From: Planctomycetota bacterium
Lineage (GTDB): Bacteria > Planctomycetota > GCA-002687715 > CAIWVZ01
NCBI GenBank assembly: GCA_044222185.1
Contig: JBGANV010000011.1
Location: 32,001-96,000 of the forward strand
DNA: 64,000 bases
Reading direction: 5' to 3'
Part shown: positions 3,984 to 22,312 of the stretch, in pieces
Layout of the letters: every line of letters starts with the position of its first letter
How positions within the stretch are numbered: the first letter of the stretch is position 1
Program-made: the position numbers and the translations under genes
The notes under the pieces: generated by a model
What the model saw: only the letters and a program-made list of their open reading frames with translations
Database searches by the model: none
What the model was told of the DNA's origin: nothing

Positions 3984-4053
3984 CGGGTCCGAGGTGGATT
4001 CGTATCGGCCGCCCGTGCGGCCCGCGCCGAATCCTCAGTAGAGTGCCCGCTCC

Positions 4054-6001: not shown

Positions 6002-8467
6002 TCACCGCGGCTCGCTCGGACGCGACGTCGCCGCCTGACGCGTCGCGATCATGCGCCCGCCGATGCGCTCGAGCGCGTCCGAGGCCGCGGCACTCACCGA
6101 CGGGTCCTGGTCCTGGACCAGCTCGAGCAACGAGCCGACGGCCGTTGCATCTCCGAGCGCGCCGAAGGCGAACGCCGCGGCGCGACGCTCGATGGGCTTC
6201 TCGCTCTTCAGCAGCTTCTGGGCCGCATCGAGCGCGGCGCCACGCGCGTCGCCGCCGTCCGCGCCGAATTCGTCCTTCAAGCGGCGCCGCTCGCGGAGCT
6301 TCGTCAGCGCATCTTGAGCCGTCGCCTGGATGCCCGGGTCCTGATCATCGAGCAACGCCACGAGGCGAGGGGCCGCGGCGAAGACACACCGTTCTCCAGC
6401 GAACCGCGCGATGGCTGACAACATCCGGCGATCGGCCGCTTCGAGCGCCACGACGGTGGCGGCGGCCGCATCGGCAGGGCTCACCTCGTAGAACCGCTCC
6501 AGGAAGCGCGCATCGATGAGCCGCTTCGGCACGCGCGCAACGAACGCGCGCATCACGCTGCCATCCAGCTTCTGGTCTGCGCCGGCCCGTCCCCCAACCA
6601 TCGCCCACGGCACCGACGCGGCGCCCGCGCTCTCGGCCATGCGCACGAGATCCTCCACGGCTCCATCTCCGATACGAGTGACCATCGCGGCCGCGATGAC
6701 CGCGAAGGGCGGATCTCCCTTCTTCGCTCGCGACTTCGCGACGAACGCTCGGACGTCCGGCAACACCGTCGCACCGGCGATCTCGACCATGAGCGCCAGG
6801 TCGTGCGCACGGTCGCCGTCGTCTTGCGGTTTACGCGCGCGCAGCGCCGGAATGAGCGCCGGGTCCCGAACGTGGTCCGCGAACTCGTGCGCCCGACTCG
6901 CCAGCTCCAGATCCAACGACGCCAGGTCCTCCAAGAGAAACCGCGGAAGCGGCTGAGGTGTCGTCAATCCTGCCCCCCGATTGGCGGCGCCGTACGCCGC
7001 CATGCGAACCTTCGGATCGGACTCCTCGAGAAGCCGCACGCGGATCGCATCGCTCGCGCGGTCCTGGCCGAGCACCGCATGGGCCAGGGCGGCGCGGCAC
7101 TGCCCTGGAGCCAGACTGGGGAGAAGCTCGAGCACCCACCGCTCGAACTCTTCGGGTTTGAGATTCCGCGCGACGATCTGCGTCATGGACTGCACCATCG
7201 AACCGATCCCCCCGCGGACCCGTTCCTCGGTGGACGGCGCGATTGCGCTCGCTGTGGCCTTCAGCCATCCGGCCATCTGCTCCGGCGAGAGCGTGCGAGT
7301 CGCCCGGGTGTTCCACGCGACGCGATATTCCGTTTCGCCGCGCAGCCAGGTATCCACGCCGTCCTTCAACGACCGAAGCCCGCCCTGATGAACGAGGTCC
7401 GCCACGTCCTGCGGCCAGGATCGCGGGTATTGCCCGAACACACCGGCGGCCTCCATGCGCACCGACCGGTCATCGTTGTCGAGGAGGACGGCCGCGTGGC
7501 GAAGCGCTGAGTCCTCGATCGTCGGCGTGACGTCCGGCCCTCCCATCGCGGCGCGCGCCGCGTGGAGCGCCAGCGTGCGCTCGGCGATCTCCGCGGAGTT
7601 CAACGCGGCGAGGATCGAGGTCTCGACCGTCGACGTGGGGATGCGAAAGCTCCGATCGCCAATCCATGCGAGCGCGCGCTGCCGAACGGATCCGGTGCGA
7701 TGCGTCAGAGCCATCGCTGCGAGCTCCGCGACCCGGGACTCGAGGGACTTCCGCTGCGTCGTCCTGCTCTCCGCGAGCACATCGCACGCCATGCCGTTGA
7801 TCCGCGGATCGACGTGCCGCAATCCTGCCTCGATGATGGCGAATCGCGCGTCCGTTTCCGTCGTCAGCCGCCGTGCGGAGATCAGCGCAGCCTCGGCGAC
7901 GCCCAGGCGCGGGTCGGAGGCCATCGCGACCAATTCCGCCAGCGAAGCCGGCGTCTGCTGTTCGGCGTAGACGGAGGCGATCTTGCGTGCCAGCTCGGCC
8001 GTCGCGTGCTCGATCAACGGTTTCAGGTGCGGCAGGGCGCGGTCCTGGAGCGCCACGAGCTCGAGCTTGGCGGATGGCTCGGGCATGCGGTTGAGTAGTG
8101 CAGTGATCAGCATCGCGGTCGCGTCTGCCGGCCGTGACTCGAGCTCGGCCATCGTCGATCGCACGCTCGGGTCGTCGGGAAATCTATTCCCGAGGTCCTT
8201 CACGGCGTCGCGCGCCTCCGCCTCGCGGCCCAGTGCCATCAAGCAGTGGATGCGGCCCACGCCCGCCTTCGCCGCGATGTCCCCCTTCTGCTCCTTCTCC
8301 GCCTCCGCCGCCGCTTCGGCGTACAGTTTCTCCGCCTTGGCGAAGTCGCGCGTGCTCTTCTCTTCGAAGAAGCCGCGCACGTATGCGTCCTCCGCTTTCG
8401 ACTGCGCGAGGAGCGGAGCCGTCAGAACGAGCACGAGGGCCAATGACGTCGAGATGGTGCGATGCAT
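6002..8467 (-). CDS. Secreted/periplasmic HEAT-repeat protein with N-terminal TPR-like segment
   Basis: Signal peptide (LALVLVLTAPLLAQ) and HEAT/PBS-lyase-like repeats (ERRAAAFAFGALGD...LLELVQDQDPSVSAAASDAL). GGGAG SD. Co-oriented downstream of the two-component genes. Confidence 0.8.
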   Translation of the reverse strand: MHRTISTSLALVLVLTAPLLAQSKAEDAYVRGFFEEKSTRDFAKAEKLYAEAAAEAEKEQKGDIAAKAGVGRIHCLMALGREAEARDAVKDLGNRFPDDPSVRSTMAELESRPADATAMLITALLNRMPEPSAKLELVALQDRALPHLKPLIEHATAELARKIASVYAEQQTPASLAELVAMASDPRLGVAEAALISARRLTTETDARFAIIEAGLRHVDPRINGMACDVLAESRTTQRKSLESRVAELAAMALTHRTGSVRQRALAWIGDRSFRIPTSTVETSILAALNSAEIAERTLALHAARAAMGGPDVTPTIEDSALRHAAVLLDNDDRSVRMEAAGVFGQYPRSWPQDVADLVHQGGLRSLKDGVDTWLRGETEYRVAWNTRATRTLSPEQMAGWLKATASAIAPSTEERVRGGIGSMVQSMTQIVARNLKPEEFERWVLELLPSLAPGQCRAALAHAVLGQDRASDAIRVRLLEESDPKVRMAAYGAANRGAGLTTPQPLPRFLLEDLASLDLELASRAHEFADHVRDPALIPALRARKPQDDGDRAHDLALMVEIAGATVLPDVRAFVAKSRAKKGDPPFAVIAAAMVTRIGDGAVEDLVRMAESAGAASVPWAMVGGRAGADQKLDGSVMRAFVARVPKRLIDARFLERFYEVSPADAAAATVVALEAADRRMLSAIARFAGERCVFAAAPRLVALLDDQDPGIQATAQDALTKLRERRRLKDEFGADGGDARGAALDAAQKLLKSEKPIERRAAAFAFGALGDATAVGSLLELVQDQDPSVSAAASDALERIGGRMIATRQAATSRPSEPR

Positions 8468-8517
8468 GGTGTGTCTCCCGTGACGTCCTCATTCGACCAT
8501 CGCGGGACCCAAAACCC

Positions 8518-8534
8518 CGTCCCGGAGTTGTCAC
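8518..8534 (-). promoter_or_regulatory. Candidate OmpR/PhoB-type tandem half-sites (GTGACA-N5-GGGACG, 11-bp period)
   Basis: Lies between the response regulator and the HEAT gene. Similar 11-bp-spaced sites occur at 11059-11086. Confidence 0.4.
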
Positions 8535-9226
8535 GAACCTCTGGCGTCGAGGTCCAGCCGGTAGCCGTGGCCGTGCACGGTGACGAGGAAGCGGGGTGCG
8601 GCCGGATCGGCCTCGATCTTTCGGCGCAACCGCGCGATGTGGTTGTCGAGCGTGCGGGTCTCCGCGGCGCGGGATACGCCCCACAAATCGCGGAGGATCT
8701 GCGCCCGGTCGACGGCATGGCCGGGCCTGGCGGCGAGATAACGCAGAAGATCCGTTTCGATCCCCGTCAGCTCCTCCGTGCGGTCGCCGTGATTCGCCGT
8801 TCGGGCACCAAGGTCGACGTGCACCCGACCCAACGTGAGGACGTCCCGCGGCACGGCCGTGCCGGTGCGCCGAAGCACGGCCTGGATGCGGGCGACCAGT
8901 TCGGCGATGCCAAACGGCTTCGTGACGTAATCGTCGGCGCCGAGCTGGAGCCCCATGACCTTGTCGGTCTCGGAGCCGCGAGCGGTCAGGCAGATGACGG
9001 CCGTGGTGGCACCGCGCGCCCGAAGCGTCGTCAACACCTCCGTGCCGTCCACGTCTGGAAGCGACAGGTCGAGGATCACGAGATCGAACGCGGATGCGGA
9101 TGCCCCATCCATCGCCGCGCGCCCCTGATCGACCCACGTGACGGTGAAGCCCTCACGTTCCAGGTTGAACTGGAGGCCGCGCGCCAGATTGGCGTCATCC
9201 TCCACGAGCAGGATGCGGGCCTTCAC
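8531..9226 (-). CDS. OmpR/PhoB-family response regulator
   Basis: ILLVEDD, DLVILDLSLP, GADDYVTKPF and winged-helix end (RTLDNHIARLRRKIE...TVHGHGYR). Confidence 0.96.
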   Translation of the reverse strand: MKARILLVEDDANLARGLQFNLEREGFTVTWVDQGRAAMDGASASAFDLVILDLSLPDVDGTEVLTTLRARGATTAVICLTARGSETDKVMGLQLGADDYVTKPFGIAELVARIQAVLRRTGTAVPRDVLTLGRVHVDLGARTANHGDRTEELTGIETDLLRYLAARPGHAVDRAQILRDLWGVSRAAETRTLDNHIARLRRKIEADPAAPRFLVTVHGHGYRLDLDARGS

Positions 9227-11034
9227 GTCGCGCCTCCTCGATCCTCGGGCCCGAGCGGCAACGTGACGACGACCTGCGCTCCGCCGCCGGGACGAGCCTC
9301 GGCACGGACCTCGCCGCCATGCGCCACGACCACCTCGCGAACGAGTGCGAGCCCGAGCCCCGCGCCGCGCGTGCGCACGCCGGGTCCGCGAACGAAGCGC
9401 TGGAAGATGGCGTCGCCGAGTGCCGCAGGGAGTCCGGGGCCGCGGTCGCCGACGGTCACCGTGACGAGTGGAGCCTCCGCCACCACGCTCACGTCGAGCG
9501 TGCGGCCCGTCGCCGCGTGGTTGATGACGTTCTCCACCAGATTCATGAAGACGCCGCGCAGGGCATCGGGATTCCCGCGGACGGTGGCGGCGTGCGTCAT
9601 CGCGTTCGCGTTCACGGCGATGCCGTGCTCCATGAGCAGGGGCCGGCTGCTCGCGAGCACGTCGTCGAGGAGCGTGCGGACGTCGATGGGTTGTCGCCGC
9701 GCGGCGACCTCGCCCGAATCCAATCGGCCGAGGTCGAGGACGGAGTCGACGAGTCCGGAGAGCCTCACTGCTTCCTGTTCGATGGTCGTCGCGAACTCGG
9801 TGGTTTCGGCGGCCGTACGCGTGCGACCGCGGGCGATGGTCTCCGCGTACATGCGGATCACCGTCAACGGGGTGCGCAGATCGTGCCCCACCTTGGAGAC
9901 GAATGCGGACCGCGCCCGCGCCGCCGCGTCCGTCGCGCGCGCCGCACTCCAGGTCAAGACGACGGCCGCGCCGCCGCCGAGCAGCAGCAGCACGAGCGCG
10001 CCGAACACCACGAGGACGTTGCGGCGCCCCTCGGAGACGACGGCGGAGCGATCCGCGTCCGCCACGATGCGCACGCCCGGGAGGCGGGCCGAGATCGCTC
10101 GCGACTCGCGGATCCAGGCGTCCGTCGCGGCGTCGAGCAGGCTGGTTTCATCCGCGATGCGTGTCCCGCTCGGCAGATCCCCGATTTCGCCTTCCAGGAG
10201 GCCCACGTCGCCGGTCTCCAATCGACGCCACGCGCGCAGGCGATCGCCATCGATCTCCGCGCCGGCGTCCGGAGCAAAGCCTCGGGCCACGCGCGGTGCG
10301 AGGCGTGCGATGGTTGCGACCTCCGCGCGCCGGTTCGCGAGCGTCGGCGGATCGTCGCCGAGGCGTCGCAAGAGTTCCGTGGCGATGCCGTCGTCGGGTC
10401 CGCCCACGCAGGCAAGGATGTCGGATCGCAGGTCCGCGTCGGGTCGTCCGAGTTCCAGTCGTCCCTGGAGGCCCTCGAACGTGCGCCGCTCGGCTCCGCC
10501 CAGTTCAGCGACGAATTCGGCGAGGCGCGAGCCTGCGGGCGCGCGGCCCGCACGGCGGTCGATCGCGAGGAGGTGCCAGCGCGCCAGCGCACGACAGCGC
10601 GGATCCCGCTCCGAAGCCGCAGCGGCGCGATAGAGGATCTGGGCCCGCTCGATGCCGTTCGCCGACGCGTCGCCCGAGGCGGCTTCCGCCGCGGCTCCTT
10701 CACGGAGGTAGAAGTGCCCCTGGGGATCCGCGCTCTCAGACAGCGTCAGGACCGCGAGCGCCTCAGGCTGTTTGGGGCTGAGGAAGGTTCCGTCCGCCGC
10801 GACCACCATTCGCCGACCTCGATCGCCGAGTCCCGCCTCCAACTCCGCCAGACGCGACGCGACGACGGCCGCCCCCTCGCCGATCCTCGCCGCCAGTCGC
10901 GCCCGCGCCTCGTTCTCCGCGAGCACCGGTCCCGCCGCCGCCGTCCGGAGCCCGTGAACCAAGAGCCCGACCGCCGCGAGCCCCAGCAGGGTCGCCGGCA
11001 GCCACGGTCGAAGGGCTCGTTCCGGTCTCGACAT
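9223..11034 (-). CDS. Membrane sensor histidine kinase
   Basis: Two TM segments, H-box GHDLRTPL, N-box NLVENVINHA, DRGPG and GAGLGL. 4-nt overlap with the regulator. Start is ATG 11034 or GTG 11064. Confidence 0.93.
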   Translation of the reverse strand: MSRPERALRPWLPATLLGLAAVGLLVHGLRTAAAGPVLAENEARARLAARIGEGAAVVASRLAELEAGLGDRGRRMVVAADGTFLSPKQPEALAVLTLSESADPQGHFYLREGAAAEAASGDASANGIERAQILYRAAAASERDPRCRALARWHLLAIDRRAGRAPAGSRLAEFVAELGGAERRTFEGLQGRLELGRPDADLRSDILACVGGPDDGIATELLRRLGDDPPTLANRRAEVATIARLAPRVARGFAPDAGAEIDGDRLRAWRRLETGDVGLLEGEIGDLPSGTRIADETSLLDAATDAWIRESRAISARLPGVRIVADADRSAVVSEGRRNVLVVFGALVLLLLGGGAAVVLTWSAARATDAAARARSAFVSKVGHDLRTPLTVIRMYAETIARGRTRTAAETTEFATTIEQEAVRLSGLVDSVLDLGRLDSGEVAARRQPIDVRTLLDDVLASSRPLLMEHGIAVNANAMTHAATVRGNPDALRGVFMNLVENVINHAATGRTLDVSVVAEAPLVTVTVGDRGPGLPAALGDAIFQRFVRGPGVRTRGAGLGLALVREVVVAHGGEVRAEARPGGGAQVVVTLPLGPEDRGGAT

Positions 11035-11248: not shown

Positions 11249-14200
11249 ATGGCCGAGAGTGATTCGAACAAGCCGGTCATCGCCCGGCCGCGAAGTCTGT
11301 TCATCGCGTATGACACGACCGTCGACTATTTGAAGGACTGTCTGGGCGTCCTCGTCGACTCGGGCGAGCGGATCCGCGACATGCAACCGGTCGTGCTCGC
11401 CCGCACACCGGGTCAGGGCAGCATTCCGGAGAGAGTGCTCACGGGGATCCGTGAAGCGGATGCGTTCCTCGGAGTTCTCGACCGACCGAATGCGAACGTC
11501 GGCTTCGAACTCGGATACGCGTTGGGCAACGACAAGCCGTCGTGGTTGATGCGATTCGAGGACCGCGCGCACGGATGGCTCAAGGCGCCGCCGCTCGCTG
11601 AACTCGGCGTGCCCTCGTTCACCAACACGGAGGAGCTGCGCAATCAGGTCGGCCAGACGGAGGCGCTACGGCCGCCCGGCGCACCTGCGACCGGCGGATC
11701 GGAGGTCCTGTTCCTTTGCCCCACGAGCGGGCGCGGAGCGACTCTGCGCGAGAAGGTCAAAACCAGTGCGAAGGGTTGGACGGCATTCGATCACGCAGCC
11801 TGGAGCCTGACCGACCTTCCGAAACGTCTCGATCGCGTCGGCACTGTGGTCTGGGCGTACGTTCCGCCGGACCCAAACAAGGAATCAGCTGAACGCGACG
11901 GCATCGAGAACGCGATCCTCGCGATCCTCGCCGGCTACGCGCGCGGCAGCGGTCGCAGCCTCAAGTTCTGGCACTACGGCGACCTCACGAAGACCCGGAC
12001 GCTGGTCGACGTCTCCGACTCGTGGCGCGAGATCAAGAACTTCGATGCGATCCCGGCTGCGATCCTGGATGTGGAGCACGACCGCGCGGCGAACGAATAC
12101 CGCGCTGCCGTCGAGGACTATCGAACGCGTGCAGCCGATGCATTCCGCACGTTCCGACCGCTGGGGTTCGAGGGGCGCTTCCGGATCGACGTGCGACTCG
12201 ACGAGTTGTTCTTCGAAATGGCGTGCCGTCATCGGATATCCCGTGCGAGCGGTCGCGATGGGCTCGGTGAAATGGAACGCCACGGCGGCATTCCGCTCAC
12301 GAAGTCGTTCGACCCGATCGGAACTGACGACGCGCCGGACGGAGTCCTACTCCTCGGTGAACCCGGAGCGGGCAAGACGACGCAACTGCGCCGGCTCCTC
12401 CGCTGGGTTGCGCCAGCCAGGTCTGCGGACGCGCGGGGCGCACTCGACGGCGCCGTCCCGTTCCTCGTCAGCCTGCGCGACATCAACCCGGCCCAGCCGG
12501 AGGCAGAACTGACGCCGGAGGCCATCGCAAAGCGAGCGATCCGCGCGGCCGGAGCGCAAGCCGCGGCAGGGCGCGTGCGCGACATCCTCGAACGCGAGAA
12601 GCCACTCTTTCTCCTCGACGGGCTCGACGAGATCCGCGACTCGAATCAACGGGCAGCCGTCGCCAAGGCGGTCGTCAAGCTCTCCAAGACTGCGCGCGTC
12701 ATCGCGACGTGCCGGTTCGCGGGCTACGACGCGGTCAAGAGCACGTTCGAAAACCGTTTCCTCCTGCTCGAGGTTCCGTCACTGACGAAAGACCAGGCCG
12801 AGGCGTTCGTCCTCCGCTGGTATCAGGCGGTCGAGACGGCAGGAGACATCGACGATCGCGAGAAGCGCCTCGCCGACGCCGCCCAAAAGGCCGCCGAGCT
12901 CAACGCAAGCATCGCCGCCGAGAACATCATCACGTCGAAGCGCCTCCAAGACCTGTCCGGCAATCCGCTGCTTCTCACAGCCGTCTGCCTCGTGCATCGG
13001 GACCTGCAGCGCCTGCCCATTGGCCGCGGCGAGCTCTACGAGCTTTGCGTCAAGGCGCTCATCGAGCTTTGGACGCGTAACAAGGAAGTGAAGCTCGACC
13101 TCGACGCGGCGAAGGCGCAGCTTGCGTTGCAGCGCATGGCGTTGTGGCTTCACCAGGAGACGGATCGGCAGTCGGCCACAGTCGATCAGCTCCGGGCGGA
13201 GATCGAGCCGACGCTGCGCCGCCACGGTTGGCGGACTGGGCTCGCCAACTTCCTCGCACACATCCGCGACGAGACGGGTCTCTTGACGGATGCTGTCGGT
13301 GGCGGGTTCAAGTTTCTGCATCTCTGCTTCCAGGAGTACCTCGCGGCATGTGAGATCCAGCGACGCGCCATCGACGAGCCGGAACGCATCGACAGCCTCG
13401 CGTCGCACTTCGGCGAGAGCTGGTGGCAGGAGGTCGCCGGCATCCTCGTGGCGCTGAAGGGGTCCGACTGTTTCCATCGCTATTTCCGCTCGGTCGTCCG
13501 GAACCCGAGCTTCGGCGACACGGCGCACACGGAGGTGGCTCGCTCCTGCGTTCGCGATGCACGCGATCCGACGCCCGAGCCCTTCGTGGACTGCCTGCTC
13601 GGTGAGGAACCGACGAACGACGGCGCCATGCGGTGCCACATCGCCGCCGCCACGATCGTCGTGGATCGATTCCCCGACGAAGTGCCCGTGATTCGCGAGC
13701 GCTTCGTGGAGACACCGCACAAGAGCGACTACGTGCTGGAGCTCTTCGGCGTCGCGGCTCGGACACCGCTCGTAACGGTCTCGGCGCCCGAGGTTTTCAT
13801 CACCCCCAACGGTGGCTGCGAACTCGTTCGCATCCCCGCCGGCACTTTCCTCATGGGCTCACCCGAATCGGAGGCAAATCGCCAGGGAAACGAAGGCCCG
13901 CAACACCGAGTCACGTTGACACGAGACTTCTACATAGGACGCTTCCCCGTCACGAACGCGCAATACGCCCTGTTTCTCCGGTCGCATGAGAAGCCGGACG
14001 TGGTGGAGGAACCGAGCCATTGGCGAAGTCAGCGGTTCAACGAACCTGATCAGCCCGTCGTTGGCGTCAGCTGGGACGACGCGACCGCGTTCTGCGTCTG
14101 GGCGGGAACGAACACGCTCGCACCGCTCGAAGGTCGGCTGCCGACGGAGGCGCAGTGGGAGTACGCGTGTCGGGCTGGGACAGAGACGCCATACTGGTCC

Positions 14201-14584
14201 GGAAACGACGTCGGCGCGCTAGACCAGGTCGGGTGGTTCGACAAGAACACGCTCGGCAGGACCAAGCCCGTGGGTCTAAAGCCCGCGAACCGGTTCGGTC
14301 TCCATGACACGCATGGGAGCGTGTGGGAGTGGTGTGCCGACCCATTCGGGCCATACGGTGAAGAAGAAGTAGTTGACCCATCGTGCGGCGACAGCGTCGC
14401 GGCGGCCCACTACGCCCAAGTCGAGGCGCTGTGGGTCGACGGGGCCGCGCGCGTGCTCCGCGGCGGATCGTGGGGGGTTGGTGCTGCGAGGTGCCGTTCC
14501 GCCGCCCGGTTTTGGAGCCGCCCCGACTTCAGGTTCGACGTGTTCGGCTTCCGCCTGGCTCTGTCCGTCATTCAACCTCGGTAA
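11249..14584 (+). CDS. NLR-like protein: tandem NDT/TIR-like domains + NACHT NTPase + FGE-sulfatase/C-type lectin domain (paralog A)
   Basis: ADAFLGVLDRPNANVGFELGYA (NDT/TIR-like), Walker A GEPGAGKT, Walker B LFLLDGLDE, GNPLLL, FLHLCFQEYLAA, then FLMGS...RLPTEAQWEYACRAG...RVLRGGSW...GFR. ATG 11249 after GGGAG; TAGAAT at 11206. Confidence 0.92.
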   Translation: MAESDSNKPVIARPRSLFIAYDTTVDYLKDCLGVLVDSGERIRDMQPVVLARTPGQGSIPERVLTGIREADAFLGVLDRPNANVGFELGYALGNDKPSWLMRFEDRAHGWLKAPPLAELGVPSFTNTEELRNQVGQTEALRPPGAPATGGSEVLFLCPTSGRGATLREKVKTSAKGWTAFDHAAWSLTDLPKRLDRVGTVVWAYVPPDPNKESAERDGIENAILAILAGYARGSGRSLKFWHYGDLTKTRTLVDVSDSWREIKNFDAIPAAILDVEHDRAANEYRAAVEDYRTRAADAFRTFRPLGFEGRFRIDVRLDELFFEMACRHRISRASGRDGLGEMERHGGIPLTKSFDPIGTDDAPDGVLLLGEPGAGKTTQLRRLLRWVAPARSADARGALDGAVPFLVSLRDINPAQPEAELTPEAIAKRAIRAAGAQAAAGRVRDILEREKPLFLLDGLDEIRDSNQRAAVAKAVVKLSKTARVIATCRFAGYDAVKSTFENRFLLLEVPSLTKDQAEAFVLRWYQAVETAGDIDDREKRLADAAQKAAELNASIAAENIITSKRLQDLSGNPLLLTAVCLVHRDLQRLPIGRGELYELCVKALIELWTRNKEVKLDLDAAKAQLALQRMALWLHQETDRQSATVDQLRAEIEPTLRRHGWRTGLANFLAHIRDETGLLTDAVGGGFKFLHLCFQEYLAACEIQRRAIDEPERIDSLASHFGESWWQEVAGILVALKGSDCFHRYFRSVVRNPSFGDTAHTEVARSCVRDARDPTPEPFVDCLLGEEPTNDGAMRCHIAAATIVVDRFPDEVPVIRERFVETPHKSDYVLELFGVAARTPLVTVSAPEVFITPNGGCELVRIPAGTFLMGSPESEANRQGNEGPQHRVTLTRDFYIGRFPVTNAQYALFLRSHEKPDVVEEPSHWRSQRFNEPDQPVVGVSWDDATAFCVWAGTNTLAPLEGRLPTEAQWEYACRAGTETPYWSGNDVGALDQVGWFDKNTLGRTKPVGLKPANRFGLHDTHGSVWEWCADPFGPYGEEEVVDPSCGDSVAAAHYAQVEALWVDGAARVLRGGSWGVGAARCRSAARFWSRPDFRFDVFGFRLALSVIQPR
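14450..14584 (+). repeat. Candidate DGR variable region (VR-A)
   Basis: Collinear with 14939-15073 (-), 45 codons each including the stop. Between RVLRGG and GFR the amino-acid differences are confined to canonical CLec variable positions. Confidence 0.6.
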
Positions 14585-14854
14585 AGCCTCGACGTTCGAT
14601 CGTCGGGTTGCGTCGAGCTCGAGCGACAGCGTCGGTAGGAAGTGGACTCCGTCGTGCCCGACCGAGGGACGCCCGTGCCACCGGCATCTCACCGAATGAT
14701 GCGCTGCTGCCCCCTGGGCGCCCGGAACGGCGGCTCGTAGCCCCGTTGCGGCCCGTCGCGGATCACCGGGGGTCAGGTAGCGGGTCGGCTTCCCGGAGAA
14801 TGCGTCAGGCTGGCGATGTCGCCGGAGCGACCGCCATGTCACGTCAGCGGCAAA

Positions 14855-14938
14855 GCACCTCGGGTAGCCGGCGGAATCCGCGGGTCGGAGGTGCCACCGC
14901 CGGATTCAACCACACACCAAAGATCGAACATCGAACAT
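14855..14938 (-). other. Heptad repeats and inverted repeats immediately 3' of paralog B (candidate DGR homing/cruciform element or terminator)
   Basis: After TAG: ATGTTCG ATGTTCG ATCTTTG GTGTGTG. Inverted repeats GCACCTC (14855-61)/GAGGTGC (14888-94) and CCGGCGG (14868-74)/CCGCCGG (14897-903). Confidence 0.5.
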
Positions 14939-15073
14939 CTATCGAGCTCGGGGGAGGGACAGGACGAAGCGGAAGCCGATGAAGACGAGCCGGCCGTCCG
15001 GGAGGCTCCCGAACCGCGCGGCGGAGCGGCACCTCGCGGCGCCGCTCCCCCACGAGCCGCCGCGCAGCACGCG
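14939..15073 (-). repeat. Candidate DGR variable region (VR-B)
   Basis: Variable-position codons AGC GGC, TTC GGG AGC CTC, GGC, CTC GTC TTC ATC can all be derived from AAC/AGG/ATC by changing adenines only. Confidence 0.7.
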
Positions 15074-18000
15074 GGCGGCGGACCGGTCGTTGCCTTTCGG
15101 GTCTTGTTGTGGGTCGGCTGAATAGGCGCTGAACCCGTCGGCACACCACTCCCACACGTTGCCGTGCATGTCGTACAGGCCGAAGCCGTTCGGCCGTTTC
15201 TCACGAACCTCAGGCGGGCGCCCGCCTGAGGTTCCGGAGAACCACCCCACCGCGCTGAGAGCCGCGGGGTCGTCGCCAGACCAATACGCCGAAGACGTCC
15301 CGGCTCGACACGCGTACTCCCACTGTGCTTCGGTCGGCAATGCGCCGATGAAACCCGTTGGTGCCGCCCTTCCGGCCCAATCGCAGAACGCCTTGGCATC
15401 GTGCCAGGACACGCCGACGACGGGTTGCAGGGAGCTGTTGAATCGCTTGTCGCGCCAATATGCGGGCTCACTCACCGACGTGGGCTTGTCGGTGGACTTC
15501 AGAAACTCGGCGTACTGCTCATTCGTGACGGGAGACCGTCCAATGTAAAACTCGCGCGTCAGTGTCACGGAATGCTGGGGGCCCTCGGAGTCCCTGCGGC
15601 CAGGCTCCCCCTCGCGCGACCCCATCATGAACGTGCCGCAAGGGATCAGCGCCAACTCCAAGCGGGCTCTTCCGAGCACGAGAGTCAGGGGTTCTGCCGG
15701 AGTGGTTCGGACCGCTGGCGTCTCCGCCACTAACAAGCGCTGGCTCTTCGCGGCTCCGCGTGCGACCCGCTTGGTGAGCGTCTTCTGTATAGGGAGCTCA
15801 AGCGCCTCCTGAATCGCGCGATACGGGTGAGGCTTCTTCGCGAACCGCTCTTTCAACCCGCGAAGTTCTTCGGGCCATCTCCATTTGAGGAGTTCGAGAG
15901 CGGCCAGTTGTCGAGGCCATTCGCTCCGACGCGTCGATGGCCGCGCCTGGAGAGTCTTGAGGAAAGGATCCGGCGACGGCTTCGTTGCGTCCTGAACGGC
16001 ATCCTTCAGGAACGTCAGGTTCGCCGCGTCACCAAACGCCGGCAATTTCGCTGCGGCCTCGAAGTACGACCGAAATGGCGTCGATTGTTTCTGGGCCAGG
16101 AGAAGCGCCGTCACTTCCTGCCACCAGCTCTCGTGGAGCCGTGCGGCCAGGTTCGGAATGGCCTTCCGGTCATCGAACGCTTGCTGATGCAGCTCGCACG
16201 CCGCGAGGAACTCCTGAAAGCACAGGTGGAGGAACTTGAACCCACCCCCGATGGCGTCGGTGACGAGCCCCGTCTCGTCGCGGATGTGTTCGAGGAACGG
16301 TGCTACGCCCTTGTCCCATCGCAGGCGCCGCAGAGGCTGATCGAGAACCGGCTCGAGATCCTCGGTCGTCGCCGACTGCCGCCCCTGCTCCTGGTGAAGC
16401 CAGAGCGCCAGTTGCTGGAGAATCGACTGAGCATCGGCCGTCGACATGTCGAGGCCGGACTTCTTGTCGCGCGTCCACTGCTCGAGAAGGATCCGAACGC
16501 AGAGCTCGTAGAGCTCGGCGCGACCATTCGGCAGGCGCTTGACGTCGCGGTGCACGAGACACACGGCCGTGAGCAGGAGCGGATTGCCCGTGAGGTCACG
16601 AAGCCCCTTCGCGCGGTTACCAGCGGCGATCTCGGCGTTCAGGCGCGCGGCGGTGTCGCGAGCGCCGGTCACGGCCTTCGCACGGTCAGGCACCTCCCCC
16701 GCCGTCTCCACGGCCTCGTACCAGCGCACGACGAACGCGTCGGCCTGTTCGGCGTTGAGAGCCGGGACTTCGAGCACGAGGAATCCGTCTTCGAAGCTCG
16801 ACTTCACGGCTTCGTAGCCGGCGTAGCGGCACGTCGCCGCCACTCGATGCTTCTCAGCCAGCGCGACGACGGCCTTCGCGGCGGAGACGCGCTGCTTGGG
16901 ATCGCGGATTTCGTCGAGACCATCGAGCAGCAGGAGGAGGTTCTCCGACCGCACGATCTCGTCCACATCCTTCGAGGACGGCTGAATGCCCACAGCCTTG
17001 ATGGCGCGTGTGACGAGCGCCTTCGCGGTCAGCTGATCGCCTGCGTGCTTCGGATCGATGTCTCTCAGGCTGACGAAGATCGGAAGCAGCCCGTCGAGGG
17101 CGCTGCCACTTTCGGTCCTCTGCCTCGAAGCCACCCAGCGAAGCAGGCGACGAAGTTGCGTCGTCTTGCCCGCGCCGGGCTCGCCGAGCAGGATGACCCC
17201 GCGGCACGCCGCCAGCTTCCCGATCCGGTCGAAGGCCTTCGCCAGGGGAATACCGCGGCCGTCGAGATCGCGATCGCCGACGGCGCGATGCCGGCAGTTC
17301 ATATCGAAGAACAGCTCGTCGAACCCGATCTCGACACGGAAGCGCCCCTCGAATCCGAGCGGGCGGAACGTTCGAAACGCCTCCGCCGCCCGCTTGCGGT
17401 AATCCTCGACGGCGGCGGTGTACTCGTCCTTGCCCCGCATCGCCTCGACGGTGGCGACCTCCTTTTTCACGGCCTTGAAGTCGGGAAGCAGGCGGCGGAT
17501 TCCGGACAGATCGGCGAGCAGACGATCCTCGCCCAGCACGCCGTAGTGCCAGAACTTCAATCCAAGCCCCCGGCCATGGGCGTAACCGGCGAGGACGGCG
17601 AGCGCAGCATTCTCGTCGCCGTCGCGGACGTCCGCCGGGGTCGGCGGGACGTAGGCCCACACGACCGTGCCCACGCCGTCGAGCAGCCGCGGCATGTCTG
17701 ACAGCGACCATTCGTCCTCATCGAACGGAACCCACCGGGGGGCATCCCCGCGAAGGCGCTCGCGGAGGTCTTGACCGGCGCCGGTCGTCGGACAGAGCAG
17801 CAGGAGCTTCGGTCCGCGCGGCGGCGGCGACGCGAGCTTTGGAAGCGGGTCCTGCGCCTCGACGATCTCCCGCAACTCACTCGCACTCGTGAACGGCGGA
17901 ATGAGTTGCGTCCTCAACGGGACCTTCTCGAGAAACGGTTCACGCCCTTTCGCGAAGGAGGCGAGCCAGGTGGGCTTGTCGAAGGCGAGCGCATAGCCGA

Positions 18001-18262
18001 GTTCGAACCCGACGTTGGCATTGGGCCGATCGAGGACGGCGACGAACCCGTCAGCCTCGCGGATCGGTCCGAGCACGTGCTCATCCGGTATGTTCCCTTG
18101 GGCGCCCGCCAAGCCCGGGACGATCGCGCGCATGTCCCGCACGCGCTTCTCAGGATCGGCCACATTGCTGAGGAGGTCTTTGATGCGCCTGACCGACATG
18201 TCGTAGGCGATGAACAGCCGCGGACCGGTCACGACGGCCGGCGCGGGGTCAGGTGCGGGCAT
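14939..18262 (-). CDS. NLR-like protein: tandem NDT/TIR-like domains + NACHT NTPase + FGE-sulfatase/C-type lectin domain (paralog B)
   Basis: Same motif order as paralog A (DRPNANVGFELGYA, GEPGAGKT, LLLLDGLDE, GNPLLL, FLHLCFQEFLAA, LPTEAQWEYACRAG, DMHGNVWEWC, RVLRGGSW). True start ATG 18262 (GGAGA SD, TACAAT upstream), not 18661. Confidence 0.92.
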   Translation of the reverse strand: MPAPDPAPAVVTGPRLFIAYDMSVRRIKDLLSNVADPEKRVRDMRAIVPGLAGAQGNIPDEHVLGPIREADGFVAVLDRPNANVGFELGYALAFDKPTWLASFAKGREPFLEKVPLRTQLIPPFTSASELREIVEAQDPLPKLASPPPRGPKLLLLCPTTGAGQDLRERLRGDAPRWVPFDEDEWSLSDMPRLLDGVGTVVWAYVPPTPADVRDGDENAALAVLAGYAHGRGLGLKFWHYGVLGEDRLLADLSGIRRLLPDFKAVKKEVATVEAMRGKDEYTAAVEDYRKRAAEAFRTFRPLGFEGRFRVEIGFDELFFDMNCRHRAVGDRDLDGRGIPLAKAFDRIGKLAACRGVILLGEPGAGKTTQLRRLLRWVASRQRTESGSALDGLLPIFVSLRDIDPKHAGDQLTAKALVTRAIKAVGIQPSSKDVDEIVRSENLLLLLDGLDEIRDPKQRVSAAKAVVALAEKHRVAATCRYAGYEAVKSSFEDGFLVLEVPALNAEQADAFVVRWYEAVETAGEVPDRAKAVTGARDTAARLNAEIAAGNRAKGLRDLTGNPLLLTAVCLVHRDVKRLPNGRAELYELCVRILLEQWTRDKKSGLDMSTADAQSILQQLALWLHQEQGRQSATTEDLEPVLDQPLRRLRWDKGVAPFLEHIRDETGLVTDAIGGGFKFLHLCFQEFLAACELHQQAFDDRKAIPNLAARLHESWWQEVTALLLAQKQSTPFRSYFEAAAKLPAFGDAANLTFLKDAVQDATKPSPDPFLKTLQARPSTRRSEWPRQLAALELLKWRWPEELRGLKERFAKKPHPYRAIQEALELPIQKTLTKRVARGAAKSQRLLVAETPAVRTTPAEPLTLVLGRARLELALIPCGTFMMGSREGEPGRRDSEGPQHSVTLTREFYIGRSPVTNEQYAEFLKSTDKPTSVSEPAYWRDKRFNSSLQPVVGVSWHDAKAFCDWAGRAAPTGFIGALPTEAQWEYACRAGTSSAYWSGDDPAALSAVGWFSGTSGGRPPEVREKRPNGFGLYDMHGNVWEWCADGFSAYSADPQQDPKGNDRSAARVLRGGSWGSGAARCRSAARFGSLPDGRLVFIGFRFVLSLPRAR

Positions 18263-18565: not shown

Positions 18566-19513
18566 ATGCGGCCGAAGCCCACTCGTTTCCTGTTGCCACT
18601 TGCCGCGCTTTCCGTGCTGATCGCGGCCAGCGTCGTCCCACGCAGCGCGAATGAAAATCAACCGAATGCACCCACCGCCCGACCCGCGAAAGATGGCGTG
18701 ACCATCGCGCTGGCCGACTGGCCGGCGTCACAGGCCGCTCGCCGCGGCCGGGTGGTTTACGAGGAGAACTGCATCGGGTGCCACGGTCAGGAAGGCAAGG
18801 GCGACGGCCCCGCATCCCTCAACCTGAATCCCGTGCCGCGCAACTTCCAGAAGGCCAAGTTCAAGTTCCGCTCGTCCGAGTCGGGACAGCTGCCCTTCGA
18901 AGAGGACCTGCTGCGAACCGTCGAATGCGGCCTGCCGGGCTCGTCGATGCCGGGCTTCCCGCTGCTGCCTCAGCAACAGCGCAAGGATGTGGTCGCCTAC
19001 GTCCTCGACGTGGCCGTCTTCGGACGAGCCAAGGTCCTGGCGGAGGCACAGGCTCAGGATGAAGGCCTCACCCGCGAGCAACTCGTGGCGAAGATGCCCG
19101 AGCTCGCTGAGAAGACCCGCGCGAGTCAGCTCGGCGGGCGCAAGAAGGTGATCGTTCCGCCGGCCGTGCCGGCGACGCCCGAGCTCATCGAGCGCGGTCG
19201 CCAGCTGTATGCGAAGCAGTGCGCATCCTGCCACGGAGACACGGGTCGCGGCGACGGCACGTCAGCCTTCGCACTCCGCGACTGGTCGGACGCGGAGATC
19301 CGCCCGCGTGACTTCACGACCGGCGTGTTCCGCGCGGGCAGCACCGCACAGGACCTGTTCCTGCGCATGCGCACCGGGCTCAACGGAACACCCATGCCCG
19401 CGTCCAACGAGAACGACGAGACCGTGTGGTCCATCGTTCATTACATCCTCAGCCTCAAGACCCCAGGCACCATCCCGAACACGCGACGGATGGGCTGCGA
19501 CCGCGGGAACTGA
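18566..19513 (+). CDS. Diheme cytochrome c associated with cbb3 oxidase
   Basis: Signal/anchor, two CxxCH motifs (CIGCH, CASCH), each followed by PRNF/PRDF and a distal Met (SSMPGF, TPMPA). Confidence 0.9.
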   Translation: MRPKPTRFLLPLAALSVLIAASVVPRSANENQPNAPTARPAKDGVTIALADWPASQAARRGRVVYEENCIGCHGQEGKGDGPASLNLNPVPRNFQKAKFKFRSSESGQLPFEEDLLRTVECGLPGSSMPGFPLLPQQQRKDVVAYVLDVAVFGRAKVLAEAQAQDEGLTREQLVAKMPELAEKTRASQLGGRKKVIVPPAVPATPELIERGRQLYAKQCASCHGDTGRGDGTSAFALRDWSDAEIRPRDFTTGVFRAGSTAQDLFLRMRTGLNGTPMPASNENDETVWSIVHYILSLKTPGTIPNTRRMGCDRGN

Positions 19514-19515
19514 CC

Positions 19516-20967
19516 ATGACATCCATAGCTGCAACACTCGAATCTGCTGGGGCCGTGGATCAGCCCCTCGTTCACAAGAAACTGGTCCAGTGGCACCTCA
19601 TCTGCGGCTTGTTCTTCTTCCTCACGTCCGTCGTGTGGGGAGCGCTGTTCTCGCTGCAGTTCCTCGACCTCTACCCGCTCCAGGGCATCTCGTTCTTCAG
19701 CCCGGGCCGCGTGCGCCTCTTGCACACGAACGAAGTGGCCTACGGGTTCCTCGTGAACGGCTTCCTCGGAATCCTCTACTACGTGATTCCCCGCCTGACG
19801 GGCCGCCCGGTCCTGAGCGAAAAGCTCGGGTGGCTCATCCTCGTCGTCTGGCAGACCGTGACGCTGCTGACCTCCATCGGCCAGTTGCTCGGGTTCACCC
19901 AGGCCATCGAGTGGGGTGAGACGCCGACGGGATTCCGCCCGGGCTCGTGGGACCTGAACTACGTCCCGGTGGACTTCCTCATCGAGCTGGGAGCGATCCT
20001 GGTCGCGCTCCAGTTCCTCACTCCGATCTTCAAGTCCGTCCACCAGCGCATGTACGTGTCGCTCTGGTACTACTCGTCGGGAATCGTGTGGCTCATCCTC
20101 ACCTACGTGATGGGCAACACGCTCGGCGAGTGGGTCTTCGCCGGCAGCTCGGGCGCGGCGACGGGAGGACTGTTCATTCACGACCTCGTCGGGCTGTTCG
20201 TGACGCCGATGGGTTGGGGATCGATGTACTTCTTCGTGCCGATCATCCTGCGCAAGCCCATCTGGAGCCATGCGCTGTCGGTCATCGGATTCTGGGCGCT
20301 CGCGTTCTTCTATCCGTTGAACGGCGTGCACCACTTCCTCCTGTCATCGATCCCCATGTCGGTGCAGTACGGCGCGGTCATCTCCACGATGGCCGTCGAG
20401 ATCGTCGTCACCACCGTGATCGTCAACTTCTTCGGCACCATGTGGGGAAGCGGCCACGCGCTGCGCAGCAACCTCCCCATCCGCTGGTTCTACACGGGCA
20501 TGGTCCTCTACTTCATCACGTGTCTGCAGTGCGCCTTCCAGACGACGCTGACGTTGCAGGAGATCATCCACTTCACGGACTGGGTCCCGGGACACGCGCA
20601 CCTCGTCATGCTCGGCGTGTTCGCGTTCTGGATCATCGGCGTGACGACGTGGCTGTGGCCGCGCCTCACCGGCAACGAGTGGTACAGCCGGCACCTGAAC
20701 GGTTGGCACTACTGGCTGTCGACGATCGGGCTCTTGATCATGTTCCTCGATCTGCTCTCGGCAGGTCTCGTGGCGGGCTACATGCAGAAGAACCTCTCGC
20801 CGTGGCTGCAGATCCTGTCCGCGCTCAAGCCGTTCTGGTGGATCCGCGGATTCGCGGGCGCCATGATCGTCGCGGGCCAGTTCATCTTCGCCTGGAACCT
20901 CTACAAGACTGCGCGGACGCCGAAGCCGTACGACTACCGCGTCGACCTCGTGTCGGGAGCTGCGTGA
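19516..20967 (+). CDS. ccoN: cbb3-type (C-family) heme-copper oxidase subunit I
   Basis: Polytopic membrane protein with RLLHTN, IHDLVG, FYPLNGVHHF and TDWVPGHAH histidine ligands. Followed by ccoO. ATG 19516. Confidence 0.92.
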   Translation: MTSIAATLESAGAVDQPLVHKKLVQWHLICGLFFFLTSVVWGALFSLQFLDLYPLQGISFFSPGRVRLLHTNEVAYGFLVNGFLGILYYVIPRLTGRPVLSEKLGWLILVVWQTVTLLTSIGQLLGFTQAIEWGETPTGFRPGSWDLNYVPVDFLIELGAILVALQFLTPIFKSVHQRMYVSLWYYSSGIVWLILTYVMGNTLGEWVFAGSSGAATGGLFIHDLVGLFVTPMGWGSMYFFVPIILRKPIWSHALSVIGFWALAFFYPLNGVHHFLLSSIPMSVQYGAVISTMAVEIVVTTVIVNFFGTMWGSGHALRSNLPIRWFYTGMVLYFITCLQCAFQTTLTLQEIIHFTDWVPGHAHLVMLGVFAFWIIGVTTWLWPRLTGNEWYSRHLNGWHYWLSTIGLLIMFLDLLSAGLVAGYMQKNLSPWLQILSALKPFWWIRGFAGAMIVAGQFIFAWNLYKTARTPKPYDYRVDLVSGAA

Positions 20968-20968
20968 T

Positions 20969-21835
20969 ATGGACCGCCTCAACCAGATCCTTCTCGTAGC
21001 CGGTCTCGGCTGTTTCGTCTTCGCCTTCCTGCTGTCGGGGCTCTACCCCTACATGATCACGGACGGCAAGACTCCGGAGGCGACGTACGCGCAGGTCGCG
21101 CAGGTCGTCTCGCCTGACTTCAAGGACCTGAAGGACGCCTTCCCGAACGATTTCACGAAGGCGTTCCAGGGTGCGGAAGCAGCGATGACGCCCCGCGAAC
21201 TCGCCACGATCCCCGCCAACGACCCGCGCCGCGCAGGCAGCGAGGACGCGTGGCGCAAGATCTACGCGACGGCGCTCCGTGACGGCCGCGACCTCTACAT
21301 CGCCGAAGCCTGCTGGCACTGCCACAGCCAGTACGTCCGTGCCGTCTCCAACGAGGACGTGCGCTGGGGTCCGCCCAGCACGAGCGAGCAGGACAACAAC
21401 GCCCTGCAGCGCCCCGTGCTGTGGGGCACTCGTCGCGTCGGTCCGGACCTCACCTATGAAGGCGGCGTCCGGTCGAACGACTGGCACATCGCCCACTTCC
21501 TCGATCCGAAGAGCACGTCGCCCGGTTCGGTCATGCCGGCCTACACGTGGTATTTCGCCTCGGGTTTCGAGGTCCGCCGCAAGGTGGCACCCGACATCGC
21601 CGAACGCGAAGGCATCGCACCGGACAAGAGCTACAGCTACCCCGGCATCTACGACACCAGGCAGGAGGCCGAGCGAGCGATGGAGCAGATCCGCACCTCG
21701 CTGCCGAACACGCTTGCCGGCGAGCGAGATCGCCTGTTCGTCGCGGAGGCCCAGCGGCCGACCGCCAAGCTCCTCTCCCTGATCGCGTACCTCCAGTGGC
21801 TGGGCACGTGGCAGCCGCAGAAGGCGGAGCGCTGA
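20969..21835 (+). CDS. ccoO: cbb3-type oxidase subunit II (monoheme)
   Basis: GRDLYIAEACWHCHSQYVR, LWGTRRVGPDL, SPGSVMPAY. Confidence 0.92.
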   Translation: MDRLNQILLVAGLGCFVFAFLLSGLYPYMITDGKTPEATYAQVAQVVSPDFKDLKDAFPNDFTKAFQGAEAAMTPRELATIPANDPRRAGSEDAWRKIYATALRDGRDLYIAEACWHCHSQYVRAVSNEDVRWGPPSTSEQDNNALQRPVLWGTRRVGPDLTYEGGVRSNDWHIAHFLDPKSTSPGSVMPAYTWYFASGFEVRRKVAPDIAEREGIAPDKSYSYPGIYDTRQEAERAMEQIRTSLPNTLAGERDRLFVAEAQRPTAKLLSLIAYLQWLGTWQPQKAER

Positions 21836-22152: not shown

Positions 22153-22312
22153 GGCCGCGGCCGGCAGCGATCAGAAGGAGTACCCGTTCGGGTACGGCCA
22201 CGGACGCATGCCGTTCTTCATGAAGGTCGTGTGGGTTGCCTTCCTGGCCTTCTGCACCTGGTACATCGTTCAATACCTGTTGACCGCCGTTGGCAAGGAA
22301 CTCGCGAAGTGA
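22124..22312 (+). CDS. Small single-TM cbb3 accessory protein (CcoQ- or CcoP-N-terminus-like)
   Basis: 62 aa: EYPFGYGHGRMPFFMKVVWVAFLAFCTWYIVQY. Overlaps both neighbours. Confidence 0.6.
   Translation: MTDKSSGDLEAAAGSDQKEYPFGYGHGRMPFFMKVVWVAFLAFCTWYIVQYLLTAVGKELAK

Follow-up and report, generated by a model that had tools for sequence, protein, structure and literature searches.

A 64,000-nucleotide stretch of the genome of a Planctomycetota bacterium, a bioreactor or activated-sludge organism (GCA_044222185.1, contig JBGANV010000011.1, positions 32,001 to 96,000; hereafter the window), contains two convergent genes, here called A and B, that code for NLR-like proteins. Our results indicate that the C-terminal tails of both proteins are homologous to the variable regions (VRs) of diversity-generating retroelements (DGRs), but very probably orphaned and fixed today. 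The initial annotation had described the tails as DGR-type variable regions and had proposed that they are remote targets of hypermutation. The description holds in so far as the tails are homologous, in frame, to real VRs and to the template repeats (TRs) from which VRs are written, although they have no matching template and are orphaned and fixed. The proposal was not borne out: neither a template nor Avd could be found in the assembly, tail A is unchanged in an independent contig, and A and B are 22-23 mismatches at positions other than adenine (non-A mismatches) apart.

In the explanation that we prefer, A and B would be old, convergent whole-gene paralogs that code for three-part STAND (NLR-like) proteins, and their last 35+9 codons would be homologous to the VRs that DGRs rewrite in this protein family. 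The tails would have drifted apart like the rest of the genes, in a genome whose only DGR cassette, on contig C6, is without Avd and template. The 8 residues at which the tails differ, which lie on loop positions that vary across the family, would need no retroelement and may be ordinary paralog divergence at a ligand-binding loop or, alternatively, the frozen products of an ancient DGR.

The features on which this account is built are the following, with FGE standing for formylglycine-generating enzyme, CLec for C-type lectin and ORF for open reading frame.

11249-14584, + strand: gene A, called form P0006, 1111 aa, ORF and translation, ORF open from 11231; effector-NACHT-FGE/CLec STAND protein
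11249-11983, + strand: N-terminal ~245 aa of A, two tandem Rossmann-like halves, TIR / nucleoside 2'-deoxyribosyltransferase-like, with the motif DRPNANVGFELGYA
12344-12826, + strand: NACHT NTPase of A, Walker A GEPGAGKT (PF05729, E=4.5e-12, residues 372-532 of P0001)
13820-14560, + strand: FGE-sulfatase / C-type-lectin-fold domain of A (PF03781, E=2.5e-56), without the catalytic cysteine pair
14450-14554, + strand: VR-like tail of A, 35 codons, homologous to DGR variable regions, then 9 codons and the stop to 14584
14585-14938, no strand: spacer between the stop codons of A and B, 354 nt
14595-14600, + strand: TTCGAT, 3' of tail A, in the spacer
14923-14928 and 14930-14935, - strand: TTCGAT twice, 3' of tail B, as tandem GTTCGAT GTTCGAT
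14939-18262, - strand: gene B, called form P0007, start MPAPDP at 18262, 1107 aa, ORF open up to 18661; paralog of A
14963-15652, - strand: FGE-sulfatase / C-type-lectin-fold domain of B (PF03781, E=1e-54, residues 1004-1233 of P0002)
14969-15073, - strand: VR-like tail of B, 35 codons, homologous to DGR variable regions, then 9 codons and the stop down to 14939
16715-17197, - strand: NACHT NTPase of B (PF05729, E=2.5e-11, residues 489-649 of P0002)

Tail sequences and the search for a template

Tail A (window 14450-14584, + strand) reads RVLRGGSWGVGAARCRSAARFWSRPDFRFDVFGFR followed by LALSVIQPR and the stop, and tail B (window 14939-15073, - strand) reads RVLRGGSWGSGAARCRSAARFGSLPDGRLVFIGFR followed by FVLSLPRAR and the stop. 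Translation confirmed what had been noted of them at the outset, namely that each has 45 codons including the stop, that asparagine is absent from both and that 8 residues differ. A 35-codon frame runs from RVLRGG to GFR in both tails, and the differences fall at its positions 10, 22, 24, 27 and 29-32. That the tails are homologous, in this same frame, to the VRs and asparagine-rich TRs of DGR cassettes in related genomes is supported by the sequence comparison.

The window had been said to hold neither a reverse transcriptase (RT) nor a template, and this was correct: none of the 6 RVT_1 matches of the genome is on the window's contig, and no third copy of the tail is present in the window. 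The same was found for the whole assembly (16 contigs, 7.08 Mb, 93.8% complete). A distant, non-coding template copy had been expected from blastn of the tail against the genome, but at word size 7 this search returned no third copy, only the partner gene (76% over 140 nt) and two C6 sequences beside the RT at 61-64%. In an adenine-wildcard scan, each 117-nt tail was compared with every position on both strands of the 16 contigs, and mismatches were counted where the genome base is not A. The best hit of tail A was B, with 23 non-A mismatches per 117 nt, followed by background at 35-37; the best hit of tail B was A, with 22, followed by background at 32-34. The positive control, in which one tail of the C6 cassette (tail a) served as the query, retrieved the other (tail b) at 7 A and 5 non-A mismatches. 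When four 60-nt sub-windows of each tail were scanned, the 3' untranslated part included, nothing but the partner gene came in under 11-12 non-A mismatches. A template differing from either VR-like tail at adenines only was therefore not found in this assembly, in which the counts run from 22 to 37 non-A mismatches per 117 nt.

Wu et al. 2018 (PMC5758913) recognize remote targets by template differences at adenines only, with minor exceptions allowed, and adenine-only matching also defines the remote targets described by Doré et al. 2024 (PMC10907252). The largest number of non-A differences that the Wu et al. survey gives for one target is 11 (PMC5758913), and A and B lie outside this published rule by a wide margin. 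Two further candidates were discarded. Tail b of C6 is no template for A or B, since its 34-37 non-A mismatches equal background, and the one contig (L033) retrieved when metagenome contigs were scanned with a 23-nt adenine-free stretch of tail B is a chance match in which the FGE domain is absent.

Divergence of the tails

A and B are 52% identical over their whole length (592/1139), and identity rises only gradually towards the tail, from 53% outside FGE through 60% in the non-tail part of FGE to 70% in the tail itself. In RT-bearing cassettes the corresponding values for the two partners are 28-33%, 38-48% and 68-79%. Judged by this comparison, A and B are whole-gene duplicates whose tail is only slightly better kept, whereas cassette partners are different proteins that share a written tail. 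Within the 35-codon frame, A and B have 77% amino-acid identity compared with 55% gene-wide. Synonymous differences affect 9 of the 27 identical tail codons (33%) compared with 47% gene-wide, and 11% of 35-codon windows are as low. The 3' ends that follow GFR are unlike, LALSVIQPR in A and FVLSLPRAR in B. Two VRs recently written from one template should be identical at all non-A positions, as is seen in the relatives; since 9 of 27 scaffold codons differ synonymously and the 3' ends differ as well, A and B have had no recent common template. Nothing left over from an RT, HTH, Avd or TR is present in the 354-nt spacer, and blastn and tblastx of it against cassette interiors gave chance-level matches only.

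The scaffold that the two tails share, R.xRGGS...R.A.R....P.......GFR, is an ordinary C-terminal motif of FGE-like domains. This genome alone has 54 FGE-sulfatase matches, and 17 tails have the same 35-residue frame. The absence of asparagine and the NNC codons, both of which might be taken as signs of a DGR, are uninformative. Asparagine makes up 2.6% of A and 1.6% of B, so that ~0.3-0.5 of 45-codon stretches are expected to be free of it, and NNC codons are to be expected because third codon positions are 80% G+C.

Variation in independent samples

Contigs of this organism were sought in runs X4-X7, from four other studies. A 238-nt contig of run X4, an independent study, covers 14380-14617 and with it the whole of tail A, with 0 differences; this run dates from 2020 and the likely source run from 2025. 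A contig of run X7 covers 14561-14740, also with 0 differences. Most pieces from these runs were short, 85-95% alike, and came from FGE genes of other organisms around 15139-15219. That tail A is identical across studies speaks against replacement of the dominant allele but leaves room for rarer variation. In a collection of 5.8 billion clusters, exact look-up gave no variants of A, B or the C6 target, and none of 245 homologs at E<=1e-20 was more than 40% identical, besides the window's own two proteins. The best match outside this genome is 41% identical. The initial annotation had named the lack of a TR together with the lack of excess variation among strains as what would speak against its own proposal, and both are what was observed, in the assembly and as far as the data reach.

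The decayed cassette on C6 and intact cassettes of relatives

The genome does have a DGR-type RT, which is 1 of the 6 RVT_1 matches and lies on C6. In the cassette that contains it (C6 ~199256-207790; locus L007, 5257-13790), the RT and an HTH_17 accessory gene are flanked by two NACHT-FGE genes in convergent orientation. The RT has 335 aa and an intact ORF, and carries IGALTSQ and YVDD, which we take to be DGR hallmarks. Its best PDB match is 8ub7 (a 328-aa reverse transcriptase, E=8e-25), presumably the enzyme of the Bordetella phage DGR, and the RTs from intact cassettes of the relatives G397 and G196 share 53-56% identity with it.

Four cassettes of relatives were verified as intact (G013:C63, two in G397 and one in G196) and have the order target-VR1 > HTH > bAvd-like > Asn-rich TR > RT < VR2-target. 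Their TRs have 6-8 asparagines, and all 9 of their VRs differ from their own TR by 0-3 non-A and 9-18 A mismatches. Gene order is the same in a fifth cassette, G013:C50, whose tails the tail pattern did not pick up. In C6, only ~50 nt lie between the HTH gene and the RT, where the relatives have Avd and TR; neither was found beside this RT, and bAvd is absent from the assembly when searched with Pfam PF22296 and with the Avd protein of a relative. The only DGR cassette of the genome is thus decayed, with the RT kept and Avd and template lost.

Of the genes that flank the C6 RT, P0003 codes for a DUF4062-NACHT-FGE protein, while the upstream target, P0005, has an in-frame TAG inside the FGE domain, beyond which the reading frame stays open to a normal tail. 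The two C6 tails are identical over ~190 nt save 12 mismatches, all 12 counted in 117 nt, and 7 of these fall on the 13 adenines that tail b has in its 117 nt (P=2e-5). Tail b was considered as the template of its own cassette and rejected: synteny with the four intact cassettes puts it at VR1, the tail of the upstream target, and it has 1 asparagine, compared with 6-8 in the TRs of the lineage, which lie between Avd and RT. The pattern of mismatches fits two VRs of a lost template.

Several observations touch on these cassettes. Homologs of the HTH_17 accessory gene of C6 occur in 6 of 401 genomes of the phylum. An HTH accessory homolog in locus L048 (G075:C62:1-11000) stands beside two FGE-like tails, with RT and Avd not found in those 11 kb, and may mark another decayed cassette. 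A protein of another assembly (P0094, 1185 aa) shares its domain architecture with the upstream target of C6; its tail (…GFRVAFPAAPSFDT) is very similar, and the internal stop is absent from it. A search for relatives of the C6 RT among genome contigs gave 199 pattern matches and 0 confirmed. The other RT matches of the genome lie at C1:31856-33247, C10:93716-95419 and C7:643300-646341 (ORFs of 463, 567 and 1013 aa) and at C15:27910-28764, which is frame-broken and closely resembles the C1 copy; judged by length and inspection, they resemble RTs of the group II intron type and an RT that forms part of a larger fusion protein.

A second pair without RT is found in the relative G013 (contig C2, locus L030, G013:C2:316000-328000), at 2503-5811 (+ strand) and 6228-9233 (- strand) of the locus, and is also convergent. 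It consists of a TIR_2-NACHT-FGE and a DUF4062-NACHT-FGE gene; the effectors are unlike, the NACHT-FGE parts are 52-66% alike and the last residues are near-identical. The tails of the partners differ by 22 non-A mismatches, the same as A and B, and match neither of the two DGR templates examined from that genome.

Domain architecture of A and B

The NLR-like nature of A and B, with an effector, NACHT and FGE/CLec domains in that order, is supported by our results, as the initial annotation had it. Pfam gave the same architecture in both, with FGE-sulfatase at the C-terminus and NACHT in the centre, both well above the cut-off, and with a nucleoside 2-deoxyribosyltransferase match near the N-terminus that is sub-threshold (PF05014, 23.7 bits in A and 21.3 bits in B, under the cut-off of 28.8). 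The P-loop GEPGAGKT is found in the NACHT domain of both proteins, and in both this domain lies between an N-terminal effector and a C-terminal sensor, the arrangement of STAND/NLR-like proteins. A longer frame of gene B, up to 18661, would give an implausible N-terminus.

The N-terminal domain was tentatively assigned by its fold. An AlphaFold model of the first 260 residues, with an alignment of 3 sequences as input (A, B and the C6 paralog), has two tandem Rossmann-like halves (pLDDT 72.8, pTM 0.79). Foldseek matched this model to a 2'-deoxyribosyltransferase (7o62_D, prob 0.99, TMt 0.61), a TIR of B. cereus (8fz9_A, prob 0.98) and TIR-STING (7un8); the matches range over prob 0.96-0.99 but TM 0.3-0.6, on a 3-sequence model of pLDDT 72.8. 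A glutamate within DRPNANVGFELGYA is conserved and may have a catalytic role.

At the other end, the PF03781 match extends to 7-8 residues short of the stop in both proteins, and the VR-like tails stand at the C-terminal tip of a C-type-lectin/FGE fold, as the VRs of DGR targets do. Two cysteines of the C-terminal loop are catalytic in true formylglycine-generating enzyme. The loop of A and B, RGGSWG(V/S)GAARC, has a single cysteine and is 3 residues shorter than the true FGE loop, and neither protein has the cysteine pair. A and B match the FGE-sulfatase fold (E=1e-54 to 1e-56), which they have in common with SUMF1, EgtB and PvdO, and the NCBIfam models PvdO, EgtB and GldK match them far below their cut-offs. 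Unlike in SUMF1, the domain is the C-terminal module of a STAND protein with a single-cysteine loop. Its role would be expected to be binding rather than catalysis. The best FGE-sulfatase match of the genome is at C6:759647-760561 (E=1.2e-82, in a 414-aa frame); its tail, RGGSFLCHDSYC, bears the cysteine pair, and it is probably a true formylglycine-generating enzyme.

Origin and present state of the tails

Several of our observations weigh against the view that the tails are orphaned, fixed and the result of ordinary divergence. All 8 differences between A and B fall within the 19 of 35 positions that are changed in the 9 VRs of the relatives (P=0.003). The annotation had placed the differences at the sites that DGR templates vary, and to this extent it was right; set against the 20 positions that are variable across the FGE family at large, the differences show no excess (P=0.19). 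Within these 20 positions, 7 of the 8 differences overlap the 10 positions that differ between the C6 tails (P ~0.01), which as a sign of a DGR past is suggestive only. The variable codons of B are NNC in 7 of 8, which fits past DGR action. The convergent, tail-to-tail layout of A and B is the layout of DGR cassettes. TTCGAT is found 30-40 nt past GFR in 4 of 4 NACHT-FGE tails of the genome and in both G013:C2 tails, compared with 0 of 15 other FGE-like tails and a chance expectation of ~0.02 per 70 nt; these cases are three pairs, not six independent cases, and the element could be a retained homing site or cis element, or could simply reflect shared ancestry. As for the present state of the tails, runs X4-X7 gave few clean pieces of this organism, with tail B without clean cover, and variation was judged from contigs, which hide rare variants. 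About 6% of the genome is unassembled, and a TR and RT could lie there or on an unbinned plasmid or phage. On the functional side, PADLOC assigned 0 families to A or B, and their effector activity and any anti-phage role are presumed from architecture and the literature on the class.

A part of this evidence bears on where the 8 differences came from. A and B may once have flanked a full cassette whose interior was deleted, and the differences would then be the last states written by the DGR, with later drift. This possibility, to which we give some weight while thinking it the less probable origin, is a sub-question of the orphaned-tail reading, since it agrees that the tails are fixed today and differs on the origin of the 8 differences. 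The convergent layout that A and B have in common with the C6 cassette and the four intact cassettes argues for it, as do the presence of all four NACHT-FGE genes of the genome in such convergent pairs, the coincidence of 7 of 8 differing positions with those of the C6 tails and the TTCGAT that follows the A/B and C6 tails alike. The loci can also be arranged by stage of decay, from intact cassettes (0-3 non-A mismatches) through C6, which lacks Avd and TR and has one target interrupted by a stop, to the RT-less pairs A/B and G013:C2 (22-23 non-A). The spacer, however, is devoid of any trace of a cassette, and A and B have the same effector and their 53% identity outside FGE, far from the 28-33% of cassette partners, while identity in the tail exceeds that in the rest of FGE only slightly (70% vs 60%). 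Silent sites in the tail have diverged nearly as far as those of the whole gene, which would date any freezing to little after the duplication. Moreover, at 60% identity in FGE ~14 differences are expected per 35 codons and 8 were seen, which needs no extra process.

A broader version of the same idea is that the A/B pair, the C6 cassette and the intact cassettes of relatives are successive stages by which hypermutable receptors become 'hard-wired' into germline-fixed pairs, with Avd and TR lost first and then the RT, and with TTCGAT as the surviving cis homing site. We regard this as improbable, though if it were true, the homing site could allow fixed receptors to be diversified again upon entry of a compatible DGR, and the series would offer a testable account of the passage from hypermutable receptors to fixed paralog families.

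It is very unlikely that the A/B tails are hypermutated at present, that is, that a TR and RT outside the window rewrite them in living populations. In favour of this, cellular DGRs with remote targets are on record (Wu et al. 2018, PMC5758913; Doré et al. 2024, PMC10907252), the DGR-type RT on C6 has an intact ORF, and the missing 6% of the assembly could harbour further machinery. Nevertheless, a template is nowhere in the assembly and Avd is absent, and the C6 tails are as far from A and B (34-37 non-A mismatches) as background. The distance of 22-23 non-A mismatches between A and B and their unlike 3' ends would require two separate missing templates, and tail A is identical in the contig of an independent study. 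Orphaned and fixed tails therefore remain the reading that we favour.

Relation to known systems

Proteins of this kind are already in the literature, and so are degenerate loci and a target without variability. Doré et al. 2024 (PNAS, PMC10907252) describe DGR-diversified NACHT/STAND-C-type-lectin 'antigen sensor' candidates in Thiohalocapsa PB-PSB1 and other aggregate-forming bacteria. Like A and B, these have an N-terminal effector (TIR, metallophosphatase and others in their set), a NACHT/STAND domain and a C-terminal CLec/FGE domain with the VR at its tip. The same report (PMC10907252) mentions several loci per genome, some of them 'degenerate' in that parts of the machinery are lost or pseudogenized, along with a number of candidate remote targets, and states that the DGR 1 target shows no variability. 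For two of its loci it also found structural variants that still have Avd and TR. The remote targets that it describes match their template at all non-A sites, whereas A and B match none. A and B also differ from the systems described there in that the whole assembly is without template and Avd, and in that they are whole-gene paralogs with a tandem TIR/NDT-like (nucleoside 2'-deoxyribosyltransferase-like) effector.

The cassettes of C6 and of the relatives belong to the same family as A and B (38-41% identity to A; 50-54% in FGE) and have the same 35-codon frame and the same convergent layout; in C6, TTCGAT also follows the tail, as it does in A and B. Their pairs flank HTH-(Avd-TR)-RT, whereas A and B flank 354 nt of unrelated sequence, and the likeness of their partners is confined to the tail, whereas in A and B it extends over the whole protein.

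Bacterial NACHT (NLR-related) anti-phage proteins (bioRxiv 10.1101/2022.07.19.500537) have, like A and B, a central NACHT, an N-terminal effector and a C-terminal sensor. The presumed logic would also be common to both, with sensing, then oligomerisation and then an abortive-infection effector (10.1101/2022.07.19.500537). In A and B, by contrast with the proteins described there, the sensor is an FGE/CLec domain and no PADLOC model matches. The function of A and B can be proposed from their architecture and from the literature on the class (Kaur et al. 2020, PMC7159879; Doré et al. 2024, PMC10907252): the lectin-fold surface would bind a foreign ligand, the NACHT domain would oligomerise, and the TIR/NDT-like domains would degrade NAD+ or nucleotides, so that the infected cell would be arrested or killed.

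NACHT-lectin proteins diversified by DGRs have been put forward as a bacterial counterpart of adaptive antigen receptors, and calling a 'remote target' by the shape of its tail alone would inflate this class of DGR receptors. The tail motif is family-wide, and a genome may hold a DGR-type RT and VR-like tails and yet no working template. By the adenine-only criterion, live targets (0-3 non-A mismatches) and orphans (at least 20) fall clearly apart.

Genomic setting

The genes that neighbour A and B are housekeeping genes, coding for a histidine kinase, cbb3 oxidase subunits and a P-type ATPase. The setting beside gene B is that of an ordinary chromosome and is free of mobile-element genes; adjoining gene B, window positions 18566-21835 and 22290-24476 hold a cbb3-type cytochrome oxidase cluster (cytochrome c, COX1 and FixO) together with the P-type ATPase.

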